A stretch of DNA of 64,000 bases from Escherichia coli (GTDB taxonomy: Bacteria; Pseudomonadota; Gammaproteobacteria; Enterobacterales; Enterobacteriaceae): NCBI RefSeq assembly GCF_024502345.1, contig NZ_JALDNN010000001.1. The stretch is one strand, 5' to 3'. The translations under genes were made by a program, and so were the position numbers. Under the pieces are notes generated by a model. The model did not search any database. It was not told where the DNA came from and saw only the letters and a program-made list of their open reading frames with translations. Below, piece by piece: positions 3,321-50,555 of the stretch (position 1 is its first letter; every line of letters starts with the position of its first letter).

Positions 3321-3528
3321 TGCGAGCAGCATTCCTGATTTTAAACGTGAACGCCGCTGGAAGAATTATCAGGTATAGAATGGCGTCGGGTGCTTGAGGC
3401 TGTCTGGCGTTAAGCATTCGCGAGGTTCCAGATGGACAAAAGCCCCAGGCGATATTTCTATCAACCTGAGGCTCGCGTTCGAACGTAGCAATTCGAATGT
3501 TAGTCTCTTCTTTGCAGGGAGGCAAGAC

Positions 3529-3681
3529 ATGCTGACAAAATATGCCCTTGTGGCAATCATAGTGCTGTGTTTTACAGTACTGGGATTCACGCTGATGGTA
3601 GGCGACTCGTTGTGTGAGTTGAGTATCAGAGAACGTGGTATGGAGTTTAAGGCTGTTCTCGCTTACGAATCGAAGAAGTAG
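3529..3681 (+). CDS. Hok/Gef-family type I toxin (small membrane peptide), hokX-like locus
   Basis: 50-aa [53 protein letters not shown] preceded by gggagg RBS; matches Hok signature (hydrophobic N-terminus, SLCE(I/L), AYESxK); longer in-frame ORF 3394..3681 probably not translated as such. Confidence 0.72.
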
Positions 3682-3870
3682 CCACCACGCGGGGGTAAAA
3701 CCCCGCGTATTGAATTGTGATGGTTTGGTCTCCTGCACCCTTTTTTAAATTTATATTTTTTATGTGAATATATTGTCTCTATTTATTATTATGAATTTCA
3801 AATGAAAATCATAAATTTATTCACAATATAAATGTTTTATTGGCTGATATATATCACAGATAATTTTTAA

Positions 3871-6135
<2,265 letters not shown>

Positions 6136-42301: not shown

Positions 42302-43786
42302 ATGAAAGCCTACTGCACACAAAACAATATTCTCGTCACGGAAAGCACGATGAATGCTTTCAGGGAGGCCATTTTTAGCGTTCCATTCGACGACACATGT
42401 GACGGACGATGCAAGCCAACGTGGTATATGTCCATTGCTATTTTTTTGCAGCATCTTATTTGCAGCGCCACTGCGAGCCGTAACACGCGTAAGCGGTCGC
42501 AATTTAAGGGGAACCGACTATGGACCTGTTCAGTTCCGTTTCCTTATGCACTGGGAGAAAAAGTGGCTCCGGCAGTATTCAGACGCTCAAGAGAGCTACC
42601 GTTTGAAAGAGCGCTGGAAAAGCTGGAGGAAGTAGGGTTTATCAGAATCATTACACACGATGTTATACGTCACAAATGCCGGGAATTTGCGCTTTCTCGG
42701 CGGTTTCTCGACGTGCTGTTTCCCGGGGACAGAACTGCTTATCTCAACCTGGAAGATCGGTATGGCTATCTGACCGATGTTTACCGCAGACGTATGGGAC
42801 CGATGACGCTGGAAGAACGGCTTGCTCAGGCCATGTTACGAAAGTGCAAAGTCAGGCATTTAACGTCAACCCGGAATATACCTGATAAGGCCTTTCGTGA
42901 GCGGGTTGCAGCGGTGTATGACCGGCTTGAAGCGTTGCCGGTTAACATCGATGCGCTGAGGATGTACTGTAACGAGCAACCATCCACTGTGAACAGGGTT
43001 TATTATCACAATTTTATCAGCCATCTTTGTGAAGCCGGTGTTGAGGCTATCAGCCTGAGTCCGTTAATCGTCTCATATCGGCAGGTATATCGTACGGCTA
43101 GGCTGGGCGGGCGTTCGTTTGAGGTGGGGAAGGGGTTTCAGTATCTGCCAAAAGGCATGAAATGGGCATGTCTGGGGCAGGGCTATAACTACGATATAAA
43201 AAGCAGCCAGCTTGAGATACTGCGTCATGAGCTGCAGCGTATCGGATTATCCGATAAAAACCTGAAGCGGCTGGAAACGGATTACATTACAAAGAAACTG
43301 GGCGTCACCACGGATGAGGTAAAACAATTTAGGTTTGCTGCTGTCTTTAGCGCTGGTTCGGTCAGCCTTTCAGTGAAAAGTGGAGTAAGGAAGAGGCTGA
43401 ATAAAGTTCTCGGCGATAAGAGGGCAGAAAACGTGCTCAAACGCTGGAAAAAATTGATGCAACCGCTACGGGAAGATCTGAAGAGGCTGATCGAGGATTA
43501 TCTGGCGACGGGAACCACAAATCGATACGGGCTTTGCGTGAAAAATGCTGTGGGACAAAATTTTAACTGTAGCTGGAAGAATTTCAGCGCCAGACAGGCA
43601 TGGCAGCCAGCGCAGATGCACCGAAAGCTGCTTGCGCACATGTTACAGGGGCTGGAAAGTCAGGCTGTGTACGATTATGTTGCCAGCAATAAAGGCGTTT
43701 GTGCGCTAGAGCATGATGGGTTTGTTACATATGAAGAGATAACTGACTGGTCCCATCCATATCTTTTGATAGAGAAAAAGCATTGA
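42302..43786 (+). CDS. Hypothetical protein (494 aa)
   Basis: long ORF after a 350-bp intergenic gap; no family recognised. Confidence 0.5.
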   Translation: MKAYCTQNNILVTESTMNAFREAIFSVPFDDTCDGRCKPTWYMSIAIFLQHLICSATASRNTRKRSQFKGNRLWTCSVPFPYALGEKVAPAVFRRSRELPFERALEKLEEVGFIRIITHDVIRHKCREFALSRRFLDVLFPGDRTAYLNLEDRYGYLTDVYRRRMGPMTLEERLAQAMLRKCKVRHLTSTRNIPDKAFRERVAAVYDRLEALPVNIDALRMYCNEQPSTVNRVYYHNFISHLCEAGVEAISLSPLIVSYRQVYRTARLGGRSFEVGKGFQYLPKGMKWACLGQGYNYDIKSSQLEILRHELQRIGLSDKNLKRLETDYITKKLGVTTDEVKQFRFAAVFSAGSVSLSVKSGVRKRLNKVLGDKRAENVLKRWKKLMQPLREDLKRLIEDYLATGTTNRYGLCVKNAVGQNFNCSWKNFSARQAWQPAQMHRKLLAHMLQGLESQAVYDYVASNKGVCALEHDGFVTYEEITDWSHPYLLIEKKH

Positions 43787-43922
43787 AGCAAGTTATACAT
43801 TATCTAAATCTGAGGGCTCATAGATTGGGCTGTTGCTCGGTTAAATCATTGTATCTTTTCAGTATGTTATAGTGTATTCTCATTTAAAGTGAGCGTAACT
43901 ATATCCTGAGTCAATTGAAAAT

Positions 43923-45458
43923 ATGAAGCAAGAAACGATCGTTCAAAAAATTTGGAGTCTCTGCAACATACTAAGAGGTGATGGTATCACCTATTATCAG
44001 TATGTTTCTGAACTAAGTTATTTGCTTTTTCTGAAGATTGCTCAAGAAAATGGTTCAGAAAAGCTGATACCTCAAGGCTACCGCTGGGCTGATCTTGAAT
44101 CCCATCCAGAAGCAGGATTATTAGGGTTTTATCAAGAGATGCTCACTCACTTGGGTGCGCATGTTAAAAATGAAATCATAAGAGAGATTTACGCATTCCC
44201 TACAACCGTTTTCTCCCATTCTGAAAATTTAAAAGCTGTTGTAGATGGTATTTCGAAAATAGAGTGGCACCAAGTAGGAAAAGATGGGTTTGGCGACCTC
44301 TATAGTGGTTTAATTGATAAAAGTGCTCAAGATACGCGTTCGGGAGCCGGGCAGTATTTTACTCCACGCTCTTTAGTTAACACGATAGTGAGATTGATAA
44401 AACCGAGTCTTGGCGAATTGATTCAAGATCCTGCGTCAGGAAGTGGTGGCTTCTTAGTTTCTGCTGACAGCTATATTCGAGTCAAATATTCACGAAAAGA
44501 GTATCAATTGAACCCTCCTAAATATCAAGGAGTGGAAATAGAGAAAAATACTCGTCGAATTTGCTTAATGAATACCTTTTTACATGATTTAGATGCACAC
44601 ATTATCTATGGTGATGCACTGACTGATGACGTAGCAGGGTTGGATGAAGCCGATGTAATCTTAGCCAATCCCCCTTTTGGCAATAAGGCTGGGGGACAAC
44701 GTCCTTTACGTAACGATATTCCATTCCCCAATACAAATAAGCAATTAGCTTTTTTGCAGCATATTTATTTGAAGCTTAAAGCTGGCGGTCGAGCTGCTGT
44801 AGTGGTACCCGATAATGTACTATTCGAATCTGGGGTTGGTACCGATGTACGTCGTGACTTAATGAATAAGTGCAATCTTCATACTATCTTGCGACTGCCC
44901 ACTGGTATTTTTTACGCCCAAGGTGTTAAAACCAATGTTCTGTTCTTTACTAAAGGCTCTGACAAAGATAAATATCAACAAGATAGCTGCACTGAGAACG
45001 TCTGGGTATACGATCTACGTACCAATATGCCAAGTTTTGGTAAACGTACACCCTTCGGTAATTCAGATATTGGCTTTGCGGCAGAAGATTTCGGTACAGA
45101 TCAGCACCTCGGCGCGTTCGAAAAAGTGTTCGGAGATAATCCAGACGGCACCAGCAAGCGCACCGAAGGTGAATACAGCTTTGGTGCAACAGATATTGAA
45201 ATTGATACAGAAGCAGTAGAAGAAAACCTGAATGTTGATGAACAGCTAGCCCATTCTCGCTGGCGCTACTTCAGCCGTGAGTGGATAGCCAATAATAAAG
45301 GCGATTCGCTGGATATCTCATGGTTAAAAGACAAAAAGAGTGTCGATGCGGCTGGTTTATCCGAGCCAAACGTTCTCGCTCGCGAGGCAAAAGAAGAATT
45401 AGAAGCAGCATTGAGTGAGCTGGATAGTTTATTGATCGCATTGGAAGGGGCCGAATAA
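43923..45458 (+). CDS. hsdM: Type I restriction-modification N6-adenine DNA methyltransferase subunit
   Basis: 511-aa ORF with GQYFTPR, DPASGSGGFL (SAM binding) and NPPFG catalytic motif. Confidence 0.9.
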   Translation: MKQETIVQKIWSLCNILRGDGITYYQYVSELSYLLFLKIAQENGSEKLIPQGYRWADLESHPEAGLLGFYQEMLTHLGAHVKNEIIREIYAFPTTVFSHSENLKAVVDGISKIEWHQVGKDGFGDLYSGLIDKSAQDTRSGAGQYFTPRSLVNTIVRLIKPSLGELIQDPASGSGGFLVSADSYIRVKYSRKEYQLNPPKYQGVEIEKNTRRICLMNTFLHDLDAHIIYGDALTDDVAGLDEADVILANPPFGNKAGGQRPLRNDIPFPNTNKQLAFLQHIYLKLKAGGRAAVVVPDNVLFESGVGTDVRRDLMNKCNLHTILRLPTGIFYAQGVKTNVLFFTKGSDKDKYQQDSCTENVWVYDLRTNMPSFGKRTPFGNSDIGFAAEDFGTDQHLGAFEKVFGDNPDGTSKRTEGEYSFGATDIEIDTEAVEENLNVDEQLAHSRWRYFSREWIANNKGDSLDISWLKDKKSVDAAGLSEPNVLAREAKEELEAALSELDSLLIALEGAE

Positions 45459-47143
45459 TGATTGAGACTTCTTTACCATGGCTGAGAGTCCAGCTCGGTG
45501 ACGTAGTTCCCTATGGTAAAACCGAAAAATGCGAATTATCTGACGTTACAGGTAACACTTGGGTACTTGAGCTCGAAGATATAGAAAAAGATAGCTCGAA
45601 GATCATACAACGGCTAGATGCAACTGCACGACCATTTAAAAGCACGAAAAATAAATTCCGTAAAGGAGATGTCCTTTACGGGAAACTGCGACCTTACTTA
45701 AATAAAGTTGTCATTGCGGACAGTTCTGGCGTTTGTTCGACTGAAATCATGCCTCTAAATGCTGAGCCATTTATTGACAATAGGTACCTCTTTTACTGGT
45801 TGAAAACTGAAGTTTTTATTGATTTTGTAAATTCTGTAAGCTACGGCGTGAATATGCCTCGACTCGGAACTAAAGATGGATTAGCTGCTCCATTTATTGT
45901 AGCTCCGCTTGCTGAGCAAAAAGTTATTGCCGATAAACTTGATACCTTGTTGGTGCAGGTGGATGCCATTAAGGCTCGCCTCGAACGCATCCCAGAAATC
46001 CTAAAAACCTTCCGCCAATCGATCCTCACCGCCGCAGTTAGTGGGAAGTTGACGGAGGGATGGCGATTAAAGAATAAACTCAGTAATGTAGTTGTAAAAC
46101 AAAATATCAATCTACCAAAATTAACCCCAAATGAACACTACCTCGAACATGTTGAAGGATGGCAATGGGTAAGACTGGGTTCTGTTGTTAGTCTAATAAA
46201 CGGCGATAGAGGAAAAAACTACCCTAATAAAAATGAATATGTTAAGGATGGAATACCGTTCATAAATACAGGGCATATTAATTCAGATGGAACACTTTCT
46301 GATGAACGCATGAATTTTATTTCCAAGGATAAGTTTGACTCCTTAAGTGGGGGAAAGACGAAATCAACAGATCTAGTTTATTGCCTCCGAGGTGCAACTA
46401 TGGGAAAAACTGCACGTGTCCACTACAAAATAGGGGCAATAGCATCCTCTCTTGTAATTATCCGACCGAGTGATTACATAGACAGAGATTTCGCATATTA
46501 TTTTCTTATTAGCCCTCCGGCTAAAGATTTAATTAATGAATTTGATAACGGATCCGCTCAGCCAAATCTATCTGCAAAGAGTTTGTCTACATACCCTTTA
46601 CAACTCCCTTCGTTTAAAGAACAAATCGAAATCGTCAGTCGCGTCGAAGAAATGTTCAACTTTTCATCTCTTGCCGAAGCAAAAGCTAAAACTGCATTAG
46701 AGCGTGTCAATAAAATTACTCAATCAATCCTAGCCAAAGCTTTCCGAGGCGAACTCACTGCAGATTGGCGCGCCGCCAACCCGGATTTAATCAGCGAAGA
46801 GAAAAGTGCTGAAGCTTTGCTGGAAAAAATTAAGGCAGAACGTGAAGCCATCGAAAAACAACCTAAGCCAACACGTTCCGTTATAAAAAAAAATACAGGT
46901 GGCCGTATGAGTAAACAGATTATCAAAGTGGTTGAAGCGCTAAAACAAGCGGGAAAACCGCTTAGTGGCCAACAATTGTTAGCTGCAGCTGGTTACCCTA
47001 GTGATAGCAGTACTGAGCAACTGGAACAGTTCTTTCTGGATATACGTGACGCTCTTACCATAGAAGAGTCCATTGTAAAGCTTGAGCGCGGTGGCGACAG
47101 TCAAGATTGGTTCGCCTTGGCTAATAATAAAGCAAAGAACTAA
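45458..47143 (+). CDS. hsdS: Type I restriction-modification specificity subunit (two target-recognition domains)
   Basis: 561-aa ORF overlapping hsdM stop (ATAATG); repeated conserved segments (IPEILKTFRQSIL..., ITQSILAKAFRGELT) typical of HsdS central and C-terminal regions. Confidence 0.8.
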   Translation: MIETSLPWLRVQLGDVVPYGKTEKCELSDVTGNTWVLELEDIEKDSSKIIQRLDATARPFKSTKNKFRKGDVLYGKLRPYLNKVVIADSSGVCSTEIMPLNAEPFIDNRYLFYWLKTEVFIDFVNSVSYGVNMPRLGTKDGLAAPFIVAPLAEQKVIADKLDTLLVQVDAIKARLERIPEILKTFRQSILTAAVSGKLTEGWRLKNKLSNVVVKQNINLPKLTPNEHYLEHVEGWQWVRLGSVVSLINGDRGKNYPNKNEYVKDGIPFINTGHINSDGTLSDERMNFISKDKFDSLSGGKTKSTDLVYCLRGATMGKTARVHYKIGAIASSLVIIRPSDYIDRDFAYYFLISPPAKDLINEFDNGSAQPNLSAKSLSTYPLQLPSFKEQIEIVSRVEEMFNFSSLAEAKAKTALERVNKITQSILAKAFRGELTADWRAANPDLISEEKSAEALLEKIKAEREAIEKQPKPTRSVIKKNTGGRMSKQIIKVVEALKQAGKPLSGQQLLAAAGYPSDSSTEQLEQFFLDIRDALTIEESIVKLERGGDSQDWFALANNKAKN

Positions 47144-47152
47144 GGACAGCCC

Positions 47153-48757
47153 ATGAAAGTCGACAAACTGCATATTCGCTCACGCTTTAAAAATCTTGAA
47201 AACGTGAAAGTGGACTTTGACGAAAACCACCTGATGACCGTTATCGTAGGCCGTAATGGTTCCGGTAAGTCCAATGTTCTAGAAGCCTTGGTTGCTATAT
47301 TTCGCAATCTTGATTTAGGTGAAGCACCAACATTTTCTTATGAGTTGGACTATCAACTAGGTGAGGAAGCCGGGGTTAAGTGGTATGACGTCAAGGTTGA
47401 TGCAGATCCAGACCGCGGAACGCTAGCAAAGCAATACCAAGTTTATGTCAAAGATAAACACGATAGCAAAGCGGATTTCAAGCTTACACCCTTCTCCAAA
47501 GTGAAACGCGATAAGAAAACCAAACAAGCAGAGTTTCTTCCTAACTTTCTATTCGCCTATTATTCCGGACCATCGGATAGATTAGAAAAATACTTTCGAA
47601 AGCATCGTGATGATTATTATCGAAACCTACTCTACAACAAGCTTGACTTGAAAGCAGATATTCGTTCTCTATTTTATGCCAAACCCTATCACAGTCAGTT
47701 TGTGCTCTTGGCATTTTTCCTGTCAGATGAAAATAGTCCTCAGCGCAAGTTTATTAAGGAGCATTTGGGTATTGAGGGATTGGACAGTATTCATTTTGTG
47801 ATGCGCCAACCTGAGTGGGCTAAGCTGAAGGGGGAATTATTCTGGGGAGCACAAGGTGTAGTTCGTCGCTTTTTGGATGAATTGATACAGCACACATTGT
47901 CACCGATAAAAGTAACTCGTCAAGAAGATACGTCGTTAACGGGTAGTTATATTCGAAATGAGTTCTTTCATCTATTTTTACCTGACGTAAACGCACTACA
48001 TGAATTTGCTAGAGATCTCAGTGCTGACGAACTGTTTAAAATGCTTGAAAGCACTCTGCTGTCAGAAATTATCTCTGAGGTTAGCATACGGGTGAAAGTA
48101 ACCAGCAGCAGGGAGCCTCTCACTTTCCGTGAACTTAGCGAAGGTGAACAACAGCTATTAACCGTATTGGGCTTACTCTGGTTCACCGGTGGTAAAGATT
48201 CCTTATTTTTACTCGACGAACCTGATACCCACCTTAATCCGTCATGGGCCGTTAAATACCTTAAATTCCTGCGTGAATTCGTACCCAATCATGAAACCAG
48301 CCATTTACTAATGGTCACACACCATCCTTTAGCTATTGCCGAGCTGAAGAAACAACAAGTACAAGTCATGTGGCGTGACGATGAAAATAATGTTCACTCA
48401 CAAGAGCCTTATATAGATCCTCGTGGCGCTGGCTTTATGGCCACACTTACTGAGATTTTTGGTCTAAATACAACACTGGATCTGGAAACCCAAAAGTTAT
48501 TGGACGATAGGAACGAACTAGCCCATATCGAAAATCGAACAGAAGATCAGAACAACCAGCTTGACCTTCTTAATGATGAGTTAAACAGACTAGGATTTTC
48601 ACTTGAAAACAGGGACCCGTTATACAGCGAGTTTCTTTTAGCATGGCAAGACCTAAGATACAGCGATAAACCACCACTAACACCGGATAAAGCGGCTCAG
48701 AGACGAGCTGCTATGAAAAATGTAATTGAGGCGCTTAAAGCTAAGAAGGGTTGCTAA
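47153..48757 (+). CDS. ABC-type (AAA_15/21-like) ATPase, Septu PtuA-like
   Basis: 534-aa ORF; Walker A VGRNGSGKSNVLEAL, signature LSEGEQQLL, Walker B LFLLDEPDTHLNP, H-loop VTHHP; starts 10 bp after hsdS. Confidence 0.7.
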   Translation: MKVDKLHIRSRFKNLENVKVDFDENHLMTVIVGRNGSGKSNVLEALVAIFRNLDLGEAPTFSYELDYQLGEEAGVKWYDVKVDADPDRGTLAKQYQVYVKDKHDSKADFKLTPFSKVKRDKKTKQAEFLPNFLFAYYSGPSDRLEKYFRKHRDDYYRNLLYNKLDLKADIRSLFYAKPYHSQFVLLAFFLSDENSPQRKFIKEHLGIEGLDSIHFVMRQPEWAKLKGELFWGAQGVVRRFLDELIQHTLSPIKVTRQEDTSLTGSYIRNEFFHLFLPDVNALHEFARDLSADELFKMLESTLLSEIISEVSIRVKVTSSREPLTFRELSEGEQQLLTVLGLLWFTGGKDSLFLLDEPDTHLNPSWAVKYLKFLREFVPNHETSHLLMVTHHPLAIAELKKQQVQVMWRDDENNVHSQEPYIDPRGAGFMATLTEIFGLNTTLDLETQKLLDDRNELAHIENRTEDQNNQLDLLNDELNRLGFSLENRDPLYSEFLLAWQDLRYSDKPPLTPDKAAQRRAAMKNVIEALKAKKGC

Positions 48758-49599
48758 TGATTTACATCAAACGAGACGCCACGCTAATTCCTGCAAAGGT
48801 ACTTGCCGTTGCCCAACGCGCGCAAGATGCTCTGGAACAGCTTCCCGCTGAGCAGAGGAAAGGTTTCATCAAGAAAAAGTCTCATATATGGAGAGGCTTT
48901 TCTAAATACCTAGCCCAAATGTCTTATGGGAAGTGCTGGTATTCAGAAGCTAAAGATGCAGGTGCAAATTTCGATGTAGATCATTTCCGACCTAAGGCTG
49001 AAGCAAAGAGGACAGAAGATTTGGTCGATGCGGATGGTTATGCGTGGCTCGCATTTGATTGGGAAAACTTCAGGCTTTCTGCTCAGAATTGTAACCGTTT
49101 AAACACAGATGAATCAGGTAACACGGTAGGAAAAGGCAGTTGGTTCCCGCTGCTAGATGGTAGCCCTAAAGCCTGCTGGGATAATCGCTGTATTAACGAT
49201 GAAAAAGTCACTTTGCTAGACCCTGTAGTTAAAGCTGACCTCACCTATATAGACTACGACGACAGCGGTAGATTTACTTCAAGTAAGCTCTGCGTTGGTA
49301 AGGCAGCATTAAGGGTTAGGCAATCTGGCATTATTTATGGCCTCAATTTGGAGAAAATGCGTGAAGCACGATTTCAGGTTATGAGGGAGGCTAAAGAACT
49401 CCTTGAAACTATTCACCAATGTGCCGAAGACTTAGACCCTCTGGGCAATGAAGCCCCCATGAGAACTATTGAACGACAAATAGAACAACTCCAATCCAGA
49501 ACCCGGGCCGATGCACCATTTAGCCGTGCAGTAAGAACACAACTGATAAAACTCGGTGCAGAGGATTACTTAATTGATCGAAGTTTGGATGCAGCCTAG
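48757..49599 (+). CDS. HNH-motif nuclease-like protein, Septu PtuB-like
   Basis: ATG 48757 overlaps stop of upstream ATPase (TAATG); motif KCWYSEAKDAGANFDVDHFRPKA ... FRLSAQNCNRLN consistent with an HNH endonuclease fold. Confidence 0.6.
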   Translation: MIYIKRDATLIPAKVLAVAQRAQDALEQLPAEQRKGFIKKKSHIWRGFSKYLAQMSYGKCWYSEAKDAGANFDVDHFRPKAEAKRTEDLVDADGYAWLAFDWENFRLSAQNCNRLNTDESGNTVGKGSWFPLLDGSPKACWDNRCINDEKVTLLDPVVKADLTYIDYDDSGRFTSSKLCVGKAALRVRQSGIIYGLNLEKMREARFQVMREAKELLETIHQCAEDLDPLGNEAPMRTIERQIEQLQSRTRADAPFSRAVRTQLIKLGAEDYLIDRSLDAA

Positions 49600-49770
49600 T
49601 TGTTTATCTTTCTGATAATGGGGTTGTCCGTTAGCCAACCTGATATATTGCTTAAAGGGCTTGCCCGATGAGTGAGCCTTTGACGGGGCTTGATATGAAT
49701 TTGCGTAGAAGTTTTGGTATACTGTTTAAACGATGTCTTTCAGCCCAGATTCAACTTCTTAGGAGTGATT

Positions 49771-49941
49771 ATGAGCACCCACAAAAAAACTCAGGCAAGC
49801 TACGCTAAGCCATCTCGTGCTGACATTGTTCGCTCAGTAGCAACATCTACGGCTGTTGAAACAGGGCAGTCCTCCGCGAAGATCGAAGCTTCACTTGAAG
49901 CCACGCGCAAAAAATTTGCTCATTTGCGTCTTGCGGTTTAA
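49771..49941 (+). CDS. Small hypothetical protein (56 aa)
   Basis: ATG 49771 preceded by aggagtg RBS; convergent with and overlapping the 3' end of fic by 4 bp. Confidence 0.3.
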   Translation: MSTHKKTQASYAKPSRADIVRSVATSTAVETGQSSAKIEASLEATRKKFAHLRLAV

Positions 49942-50555
49942 TCCCTTCTTAATGCTTCTCGCACCCAGTGTTTCATCGGCTCATAGTCCATTGATATGCC
50001 AGCATGGATGGCCGATATATACTGAGTTTTGTTTTGCTCCCAGCTTTGATAATCCAGCGGTTTGTATCCTCCCTGAACGGCCATCACGTCGGCTAGCAGT
50101 CGCGACAGGCGTCCGTTTCCCTCTCTGAATGGATGGATAAGTATTATCTCTACATGGGTTATGGCGATAGCGGTGATGAGTTGTTCTTCGTCCATGCCGC
50201 TACACGGTGTGTATTGAGCCAGATACTTAGTGTCGAATTCGTTCAGCAGTTTTGGCACCTGCGCTGAGGGGGCAAACATAAAGCCGCCTTTGCTAATATT
50301 CACCGCTCTTTCTTGTCCAGCCCACTCGTAGATGTTACCTAACCAGCGGCGATGCCAGCTTTTTAGCATGGCTACGCTGAGCTGTCCTTCCGGGAACTGC
50401 TCTTCAAAAACAGACTGGTAGAGTTGTTCTAACAGGACAAGTTCAGCCTCATCCATCTCATCAGAAGTCGCAATCCCCAGCTTATTAGCCAAAACCTGCT
50501 CGCCAGAGTCTTTCTCATACTGGCCTTCACTGCTGGATACATGGTATCGGCTCAT
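49938..50555 (-). CDS. Fic/Doc-family protein (probable AMPylase/toxin)
   Basis: 205-aa ORF with canonical Fic motif HPFREGNGRLSR. Confidence 0.85.
   Translation of the reverse strand: MSRYHVSSSEGQYEKDSGEQVLANKLGIATSDEMDEAELVLLEQLYQSVFEEQFPEGQLSVAMLKSWHRRWLGNIYEWAGQERAVNISKGGFMFAPSAQVPKLLNEFDTKYLAQYTPCSGMDEEQLITAIAITHVEIILIHPFREGNGRLSRLLADVMAVQGGYKPLDYQSWEQNKTQYISAIHAGISMDYEPMKHWVREALRRD

Follow-up and report, generated by a model that had tools for sequence, protein, structure and literature searches.

Septu PtuA/PtuB genes and a type I methyltransferase core with an extended HsdS: a probable composite system on an Escherichia coli genomic island

Septu is among the most widespread anti-phage systems, and how infection is sensed by stand-alone PtuAB is still unclear. 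In other Septu systems, defence against phage has been shown to require the ATPase and HNH motifs. Related effectors have been described with several partners. In retron-Septu (the type I-A retron Eco7/Ec78, also called "Septu type II"), PtuAB are reported to be placed under an upstream-encoded module that handles nucleic acid. In the PADLOC papers, Septu appears together with a reverse transcriptase (RT) and embedded in Hma, and type I restriction–modification (R-M) loci are noted to harbour embedded genes frequently. PrrC of EcoprrI, like RloC, is an ABC-ATPase-regulated nuclease genetically linked to a type I hsd operon; PrrC is one polypeptide with an anticodon-nuclease domain, is encoded between hsdS and hsdR, is known only with complete R-M systems, and depends functionally on the R-M proteins. 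MADS, a multi-gene system with no classical HsdR, contains an ABC-type ATPase alongside a type I-like methyltransferase and an S subunit, besides other components. Here, we describe a four-gene cassette, hsdM–hsdS–ptuA–ptuB, in a 64-kb chromosomal window of Escherichia coli (pphB–mutS ... ygbA–fhlA–hyp–hyc; "the window" denotes this whole stretch throughout), in which a Septu PtuA/PtuB pair directly follows a type I methyltransferase core. A comparison of the cassette with its relatives suggests that the two halves are coupled.

The four genes lie head to tail on the + strand at 43923–49599, with junctions that overlap or are separated by 9 nt, and their catalytic motifs are intact. The first, hsdM (43923–45458), encodes a type I N6-adenine DNA methyltransferase subunit of 511 amino acids (aa), which matched the PADLOC model MTase_I (PDLC03026) at 3e-190, was 50% identical to EcoKI HsdM, and contained the S-adenosylmethionine (SAM) motif DPASGSGGF and the catalytic motif NPPFG, as type I HsdM proteins do. 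The second, hsdS (45458–47143, 561 aa), encodes the specificity subunit; it matched Specificity_I of PADLOC at 8e-114 and contained two Pfam Methylase_S domains, with target-recognition domains at residues 11–178 and 233–415 followed by a C-terminal extension. It was 35% identical to EcoKI HsdS and aligned with it through both conserved regions, as expected of a type I HsdS, and EcoKI HsdS ends approximately 95 residues before the HsdS of the window. The third, ptuA (47153–48757, 534 aa), encodes the Septu ABC-type ATPase, which matched PDLC00293 at 2e-215 with residues 1–532 over the 527-position profile. Its Walker A (GRNGSGKSN), signature (LSEGEQQ), and Walker B (LLDEPD) motifs and the H-loop were invariant in 60 relatives, in keeping with a Septu PtuA. 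The fourth, ptuB (48757–49599), encodes the Septu HNH nuclease, of 280 aa from the ATG at 48757 (the start given by the NCBI annotation pipeline, PGAP) or 282 aa from the TTG at 48751; it matched PDLC00343 at 1e-99 over its full length and carried the motifs DVDHFRPK and NCNRLN, the D-H...N residues of which were conserved in the relatives, in keeping with a Septu PtuB. The hsdM/hsdS junction is ATAATG at 45455–45460, and the ptuA/ptuB junction is TAATG at 48755–48759; the hsdS stop codon (TAA, 47141–47143) is separated from the ptuA ATG at 47153 by a 9-nt spacer containing GGA. A preliminary description of this DNA, made from the sequence alone, had reported the same head-to-tail arrangement, the two overlapping junctions, the HsdM, ATPase, and HNH motifs, and an intact-looking two-domain HsdS, all of which were found again when the open reading frames (ORFs) and junctions were re-read; the motifs proved to be conserved across relatives as well. 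It had placed the ATPase start 10 bp after hsdS; the near-abutting start stands, and the distance is 9 nt. Its reading of the ATPase/HNH pair as Septu-like was borne out by the full-length matches to the two PADLOC profiles.

Compared with the described systems, the cassette resembles Septu in having an ABC ATPase gene followed by an HNH nuclease gene in an overlapping two-gene unit and a PtuA C-terminal tail that pairs with PtuB. Unlike stand-alone Septu, this PtuA subfamily is fixed on the 3′ side of hsdS, and HsdS is extended or fused to PtuA. Sequence similarity to the PtuA proteins studied so far is marginal: the best Protein Data Bank (PDB) match of PtuA had an E value of 3e-7 and covered only part of the ATPase, and PtuB had no PDB sequence match. 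The best NCBIfam match for PtuA from every clade tested was TIGR04435, the "restriction system-associated AAA family ATPase", a curated family of restriction-associated ATPases that is a sister family of the PtuA of the window; membership in it was rejected, with 163.5 bits for the window and 114–147 bits for nine relatives against a cut-off of 300, over the C-terminal half only. The likeness to retron-Septu lies in PtuAB coming under an upstream-encoded module, with the difference that PtuAB are partnered in this case by a type I methyltransferase core plus a winged-helix adaptor, not by an RT plus multicopy single-stranded DNA. No RT or non-coding RNA was found in the locus, and the cut-offs of the retron-type NCBIfam models NF041760 and NF041761 were missed by PtuA (63.5 vs. 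500 bits) and PtuB (37.6 vs. 150 bits), respectively.

The cassette shares with PrrC/EcoprrI the genetic linkage of an ABC-ATPase-regulated nuclease to type I genes. It differs from PrrC and RloC, each a single polypeptide, in that the ATPase and the nuclease are separate proteins, and from PrrC also in its HNH nuclease, its HsdS tether, the occurrence of HsdS::ATPase fusions, and its many members without HsdR; PrrC models were not among the best 25 of 140 PADLOC matches. MADS was considered because of its similar composition and weak PADLOC cross-matches to mad2, mad5, and mad3, and was rejected on the scores (MAD2, 89 vs. 720 bits; MAD5, 50.9 vs. 400; MAD3, 27.7 vs. 420) and on the presence of only four genes. 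Septu within Hma and other cases of "guilt by embedding" likewise nest Septu with a methylase-containing system. Those cases are described as co-location and as insertions between hsd genes, whereas here ptuAB are appended 3′ of hsdS and the extension, the fusions, and co-variation point to a dedicated protein-level link. By analogy, the system would be Septu-like at its effector end and type I methyltransferase-like at its sensor end. No account of the HsdS–PtuA coupling, the extension, or the fusions was found in the open-access full-text literature, in line with the preliminary description, which knew of no report of the coupling.

The linkage was conserved well beyond E. coli. When one genome from each species was scanned with a PtuA alignment, 61 loci with PtuA identities of 34–86% were recovered, from the Gamma-, Beta-, and Alphaproteobacteria, Firmicutes, Fibrobacteres, Nitrospinota, and others. 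Although Septu is a system that occurs on its own, hsdS lay immediately upstream of this ptuA subfamily in 60 of the 61 loci, the exception being the most distant one (L056, 35% identity). In the linked loci, hsdM preceded hsdS, except in L046 and L062, which have the order S-A-B-M or what remains of it. Every intact locus had an hsdS–ptuA spacing between −77 and +26 nt, compared with 243 nt in the decayed locus L036, and the ptuA–ptuB spacing was mostly −4 or −1. The subfamily is large: 5,865 proteins matched it at <1e-10 in a 90%-clustered collection, with many hosts among the Enterobacterales, Pseudomonas, Acinetobacter, and Vibrio. The PtuA tree conflicted with the HsdM tree; for example, the window and Enterobacter sp. 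kpr-6 shared 81% identity in PtuA and 78% in PtuB and only 49% in HsdM, and the hsdR of kpr-6 was 89% identical to that of EcoKI. Modules therefore appear to be exchanged between loci, with the S-A-B linkage always kept, and the pattern points to a conserved composite system rather than a chance arrangement. If a self-sufficient Septu merely lay beside an hsdMS to which it has no functional tie, the latter being in decay or an orphan (epigenetic) methylase, one would have to explain why gene order and close spacing are preserved in 60 of 61 loci across phyla and why this PtuA subfamily is essentially never found without hsdS. Defence genes do cluster, type I loci are common insertion sites, and hsdR decay is visible in L047 (as a 72-aa remnant), L016, and L036. 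Nevertheless, we regard this explanation as very improbable, considering also the HsdS::PtuA fusions, the extension that is specific to linked HsdS and tracks PtuA, and the purifying selection on hsdM, all presented below.

All 55 full-length PtuA-linked HsdS proteins were extended, with lengths of 509–607 aa vs. 464 aa for EcoKI HsdS. The extension consists of a linker rich in lysine and arginine followed by a domain of approximately 65–75 aa, and is absent from EcoKI HsdS; in the window it occupies 46850–47140 (+), with the domain at approximately residues 484–555. In Pfam, no domain was recognised in it. Within the clade of the window, the domain reads "...PLSGQQLLxAAGYPxDxxTxxLExFFLDIR...QDWF". 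AlphaFold, supplied with a 55-sequence alignment, gave the core of the extension a predicted local distance difference test score of 86–90 and a helix–helix–helix–beta-hairpin arrangement, so that the domain is predicted to be a winged-helix fold, which we propose to be an adaptor for PtuA.

Across 51 loci, the identity of the extension followed that of PtuA (r = 0.88; partial correlation given HsdM, 0.85; label permutation p = 5e-4), whereas its partial correlation with HsdM identity was only 0.23. Loci L009 and L049, for instance, were 81% identical in HsdM, 43% in PtuA, and 21% in the extension. As a control, the last 45 residues of PtuA were compared with PtuB, giving r = 0.86 and a partial correlation of 0.74. 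This co-variation agrees with the contact between PtuB and the C-terminal domains of PtuA reported in a published structure. The last approximately 45 PtuA residues and the whole of PtuB (48620–49599 in the window) were exchanged as a unit separately from the PtuA core, as seen between the window and Lelliottia (PtuA core 89%, tail 24%, and PtuB 28% identical). The breakpoints delimit three modules, namely the HsdS core, the winged helix plus PtuA core, and the PtuA tail plus PtuB. On this evidence, the winged helix appears to belong functionally with PtuA, and the PtuA tail with PtuB. At least three very different PtuB types (about 269, 280, and 287–292 aa) were distinguished among 57 loci; the type in the window is the rarer one and occurred in only four genome loci.

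Covalent linkage was also observed. Nine of the 150 best PtuA cluster representatives were 786–1179 aa long with PtuA at the C-terminus, preceded by a linker region and, at the N-terminus, by a two-domain HsdS (six proteins) or a partial HsdS (three proteins). Four of these fusions (L065–L068) were confirmed in DNA as single ORFs of 1143–1161 aa, followed by homologues of PtuB (30–34% identical) and HsdM (33–37% identical). No HsdR-like ORF was present in these four loci, including within ±10 kb on one 2.1-Mb NCBI contig. The fusions, the extension that co-varies with PtuA, and the near-universal linkage together support the hybrid reading in the preliminary description, and we consider it very probable that HsdMS and PtuAB are physically and functionally coupled.

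The linker of HsdS contains a run of nine adenines (A9; 46885–46893, +), located 13 nt upstream of a conserved in-frame ATG (46907–46909), which encodes M484 of HsdS and opens the winged-helix domain. The window has no other A9/T9 run, and one such run is no more than expected by chance. Klebsiella pneumoniae alleles had A7, A8, or A10 at this site, A9 being the in-frame length, so that the HsdS core and the winged helix fall into separate ORFs in those alleles, and in a Shewanella locus the frame is broken at an A8 run in this linker. Phase variation or slippage could account for such length changes, and so could sequencing errors in the homopolymer. All 34 loci of the PtuA clade of the window have a Met where the winged helix begins (46889–46909 in the window with the sequence before it). 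The pairing with the anti-Shine–Dalgarno sequence before it was on a par with that at real gene starts, with a median of −4.2 kcal against −5.5 there and −1.5 at other internal ATGs, and persisted even where the amino acids differed. These features suggest an internal start that would yield a free winged-helix protein of approximately 78 aa.

Gene callers often called a small winged-helix ORF (P0274–P0300), even within an intact hsdS. We considered whether the stand-alone ORFs of approximately 78 aa represent a winged-helix–PtuAB system without HsdS and rejected this: those in Salmonella were alternative calls inside an intact hsdS, and those in K. pneumoniae were products of A-tract frameshifts or of insertion sequences (ISs) in hsdS. 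In one K. pneumoniae genome, hsdS was interrupted by an IS, ptuA and ptuB were intact, and the winged-helix ORF was still present.

The search for HsdR covered the window, the canonical hsd locus of strain ET490 (the cassette of which is identical to that of the window), and 7–10 kb on each side of the related loci. A hidden Markov model (HMM) built from 28 HsdR proteins was run on all six translated frames of the 64-kb window and had no match at E ≤ 10, and tblastn with the same proteins had none at E ≤ 0.01; the preliminary description, which had noticed no HsdR-like ORF in the island, was right on this point. The window therefore lacks the HsdR encoded with hsdMS that characterises type I R-M. 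Among the 61 loci, the HMM detected a full-length EcoKI-like hsdR upstream of hsdM in 29 (R+ loci) and a fragmented or cut hsdR in four (L016, L036, L047, and, at a contig end, L033). In 24 loci and the window, no match was found at E ≤ 1 within the available flanks (R-less loci), and four of the 61 were cut by contig ends and uninformative. Decay of hsdR beside intact or nearly intact hsdMS–ptuAB was observed in L047, where a 72-aa C-terminal remnant remained (5029–5247), and fragmented hsdR genes were located at 1701–5230 in L036 and 82–3921 in L016. In the HsdM tree, the window fell within a 15-locus clade in which no member had a detectable hsdR (14 R-less, one cut by a contig end). This clade spans gamma-, beta-, and alphaproteobacteria and Nitrospinota, with members from Providencia, Lelliottia, Trabulsiella, Enterobacter, Acinetobacter, Vibrio, Advenella, Rhizobium, Mesorhizobium, Stappia, Robiginitomaculum, Kordiimonadaceae, and a metagenome-assembled genome of Nitrospinota. 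The remaining R-less loci were scattered among R+ relatives, suggesting that hsdR was lost repeatedly and that one old lineage has long been without it.

These data also bear on the possibility that the cassette is an ordinary type I R-M system with a neighbouring Septu, whose cognate HsdR is supplied in trans. The gene for HsdR often has its own promoter and is separable from hsdMS, 1.3–1.7 kb lay between hsdR and hsdM in ten related loci, and only one locus of ET490 was covered outside the cassette and its surroundings. Even so, no R+ member occurs in the HsdM clade of the window, and the nearest R+ HsdM proteins are at most 62% identical, which is beyond the range expected for type I cross-family complementation. 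The immigration control region of ET490 (yjiA–mdtM, within 4185001–4212000 of that genome) contained only brnTA and IS1, without hsdRMS, mrr, mcrBC, or symE. In Vibrio vulnificus, fic–hsdM–hsdS–ptuA–ptuB is located on a 70-kb conjugative plasmid (MOBF/MPF_F), and no HsdR-like sequence was found anywhere on that plasmid; on the Pantoea plasmid pEuc2, the order was S-A-B-M with no hsdR nearby. An HsdR acting in trans would also leave the fusions and the winged-helix extension unexplained, and we consider it improbable. Clustering of the flanking ORFs revealed no conserved extra gene for a nuclease or helicase next to R-less cassettes in the stead of HsdR. The genes just upstream of R-less hsdM were unrelated and included glmS, gyrB, parB, and an autotransporter gene, and the ten largest upstream ORFs were housekeeping genes, mobile-element genes, or without match.

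The methyltransferase has been maintained in the R-less loci. NPPFG was present in all 24 R-less and all 29 R+ HsdM proteins, and the SAM motif was also retained. Within the R-less clade, the ratio of nonsynonymous to synonymous substitution rates (dN/dS) of hsdM was 0.055–0.108 (median, 0.077; 20 pairs), compared with 0.023–0.124 (median, 0.044; 12 pairs) in R+ pairs of similar divergence; the hsdM of the window gave 0.06–0.09 against R-less relatives, and ptuA and ptuB gave 0.03–0.23. R-less hsdM is thus under strong purifying selection. Target-recognition domains have been swapped between close relatives, as between the window and Providencia (HsdM 87% and HsdS 42% identical). The preliminary description had offered, as an alternative, a Septu system riding in a decayed R-M locus; this was ruled out by the low dN/dS of hsdM, the universal retention of NPPFG, and the depth of the R-less HsdM clade. 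It had also suggested that the ATPase/HNH pair replaces HsdR. That may apply to the R-less lineage and is not a rule for the family, in which the coexistence of full-length HsdR with hsdMS–ptuAB in 29 of 61 loci indicates that PtuAB are an add-on module. In the HsdM alignment (approximately residues 100–270 of the window), 23 columns that were at least 90% conserved in R+ proteins were changed in the R-less clade; the changes include D19G, LV206–207IE, and A214C, plus one 6-column deletion. They may represent a lost contact surface for HsdR.

Taking these observations together, we consider it probable that HsdM, HsdS, PtuA, and PtuB form one composite machine in which the type I core both carries and controls the nuclease, through one of the two triggers discussed here. 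HsdM2S1 would assemble in the usual type I manner, the winged helix would bind PtuA, and the resulting chain (M2S1–winged helix–PtuA–PtuB) would put PtuAB under a core that reads sequence and methylation. In the island of the window, PtuAB would be the only nuclease of the system, because no HsdR is encoded there. We tentatively prefer a restriction-like trigger, in which engagement of the core with its bipartite target in unmodified incoming DNA would license the tethered PtuAB to cut, while methylation by HsdM would shield the host sites; this may quite possibly be correct. The preference is based on the long persistence of methylase catalysis and target-recognition diversity without HsdR, on the travel of the cassette alone on islands and plasmids, and on the isolate with an IS in hsdS, which tolerates intact ptuAB. 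The further proposition that the R-less cassette constitutes an unrecognised R-M class, in which a type I core reads sequence and methylation, a tethered ABC-ATPase/HNH pair takes the place of HsdR, and the A9 tract and internal start perhaps tune the coupling, is possible, and we advance it with some reserve.

Several points weigh against this interpretation. About half of the family (29 of 61 loci) keeps HsdR, and there a further effector directed at the same unmodified sites would seem redundant. The characterised PtuAB of E. coli Septu and retron-Eco7 cleave tRNA-Tyr, in which they resemble PrrC, and are not site-directed DNases. The long flexible linker suggests tethering rather than allosteric control. 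The co-varying segments of the extension and PtuA are neighbours in DNA, where recombination breakpoints give the same pattern, so that recombination alone could have added to the signal and the co-variation may partly be an artefact. An hsdR gene may lie elsewhere in the host chromosome, beyond the regions searched, and the methylase motifs could have been kept for an epigenetic role.

Some of these points would fit better with a guard of the PrrC type, in which the core, with or without HsdR, holds the tethered PtuAB latent until anti-restriction factors (DNA mimics of the Ocr/ArdA type or Stp-like peptides) trigger cleavage of tRNA or DNA and abort the infection; where HsdR is missing, the core would persist solely as bait. 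PrrC offers a precedent, as an ABC-ATPase-regulated nuclease in a type I locus that is masked by EcoprrI and triggered by T4 Stp. Retron-Septu PtuAB are reported to be restrained by their upstream-encoded partner, and the ABC-ATPase/nuclease pair of PARIS to be triggered by Ocr. Cleavage of tRNA-Tyr by PtuAB on infection is in keeping with such a role, a back-up function would make sense of HsdR and PtuAB occurring together, and the redundancy of a second effector means that a guard fits better in the R+ loci; the evidence for physical coupling fits it equally well. However, bait needs no catalysis, yet NPPFG and the SAM motif were invariant throughout the R-less loci, including a deep clade, the dN/dS of hsdM was barely relaxed there, and target-recognition domains were still being exchanged among R-less relatives. 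The viable K. pneumoniae isolate with a disrupted hsdS and intact ptuAB argues that HsdS is not an antitoxin, although this is a single case in which the winged-helix ORF remains. We regard a guard role as possible and only a little less likely than the restriction-like trigger.

Under either trigger, the system provides a defined sensor, tether, and effector with which to ask what switches PtuAB on, in what appear to be three natural wirings of PtuAB to a type I core: as a neighbour with an adaptor, as a covalent fusion, and with or without HsdR. It would be a second, and much more widespread, case resembling PrrC in which type I proteins control an ABC-ATPase nuclease. If the restriction-like reading is true and the R-less form restricts unmodified DNA, it would represent a new type of effector for R-M. 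Annotation is affected as well: a current pipeline would enter such a locus as "Septu" together with an "incomplete or orphan type I R-M", mislabelling a single system and inflating the counts of orphan methylases.

The cassette forms the right end of an island of approximately 20 kb with an integrase, inserted between mutS and ygbA, and has a G+C content of 41–44% vs. approximately 52% in the surroundings. Among 5,426 complete E. coli genomes compared, five contained the 5.9-kb segment 43800–49700 at 100% identity and a sixth at 98.7%. In ET490, PGAP labels the four products "N-6 DNA methylase", "restriction endonuclease subunit S", "AAA family ATPase", and "hypothetical protein". A scan for promoters and terminators over 43600–50000 gave counts equal to the shuffled expectation and was uninformative. 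The coordinate offset between the window and ET490 changed by 1,196 bp from the mutS end to the cassette, which means that approximately 1.2 kb between the island integrase and the cassette is absent from ET490 or that the window comes from another strain. In the window, fhlA is an intact ORF of 704 aa, and it is annotated as frameshifted in ET490. The backbone of the island (30074–50555) includes an integrase, a helix–turn–helix protein, RadC/JAB, DUF2787, CbtA/YeeU remnants, a second integrase, and AlpA. The same backbone was found in other E. coli (KFu019 and NCTC11121; L002 and L082) at a different site, yicC–dinD, where the KFu019/NCTC11121 island carries a diverged cassette (HsdM 87%, HsdS 57%, PtuA 71%, and PtuB 33% identical), also without hsdR. 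In Lelliottia, the cassette occupies the same site as in the window, upstream of ygbA–fhlA, with a different upstream flank.

Genes for Fic proteins recurred near the cassette (among others in L009, L013, L019, L023, L034, L072, and L073). In the window, a Fic-family protein of 205 aa (49938–50555, − strand; PADLOC candidate PDC-S04 at 1e-101) is encoded convergently with the operon and is accompanied by a convergent 56-aa ORF (49771–49941, +); the same gene comes after the cassette in Lelliottia and Salmonella as well, where it is 98% and 96.6% identical, respectively. A different Fic of 360–394 aa was encoded directly upstream of hsdM in 12 loci, between hsdR and hsdM where hsdR was present, and the cassettes of the Vibrio and Pantoea plasmids have Fic genes beside them. 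Fic thus seems to travel with the cassette and is a candidate component only. Upstream, 137 nt before hsdM, lies an ORF of 494 aa (42302–43786, +) of unassigned family, with no PADLOC, NCBIfam, or Pfam match, which was missing from most other loci. The Salmonella loci L079 and L080 encode a 490-aa homologue of it in the same position (3480–4952, 52–54% identical), together with a ptuB 98.6% identical to that of the window and the Fic gene mentioned above; this synteny and these identities indicate that the block from the 494-aa ORF to Fic moves between genera as a unit.

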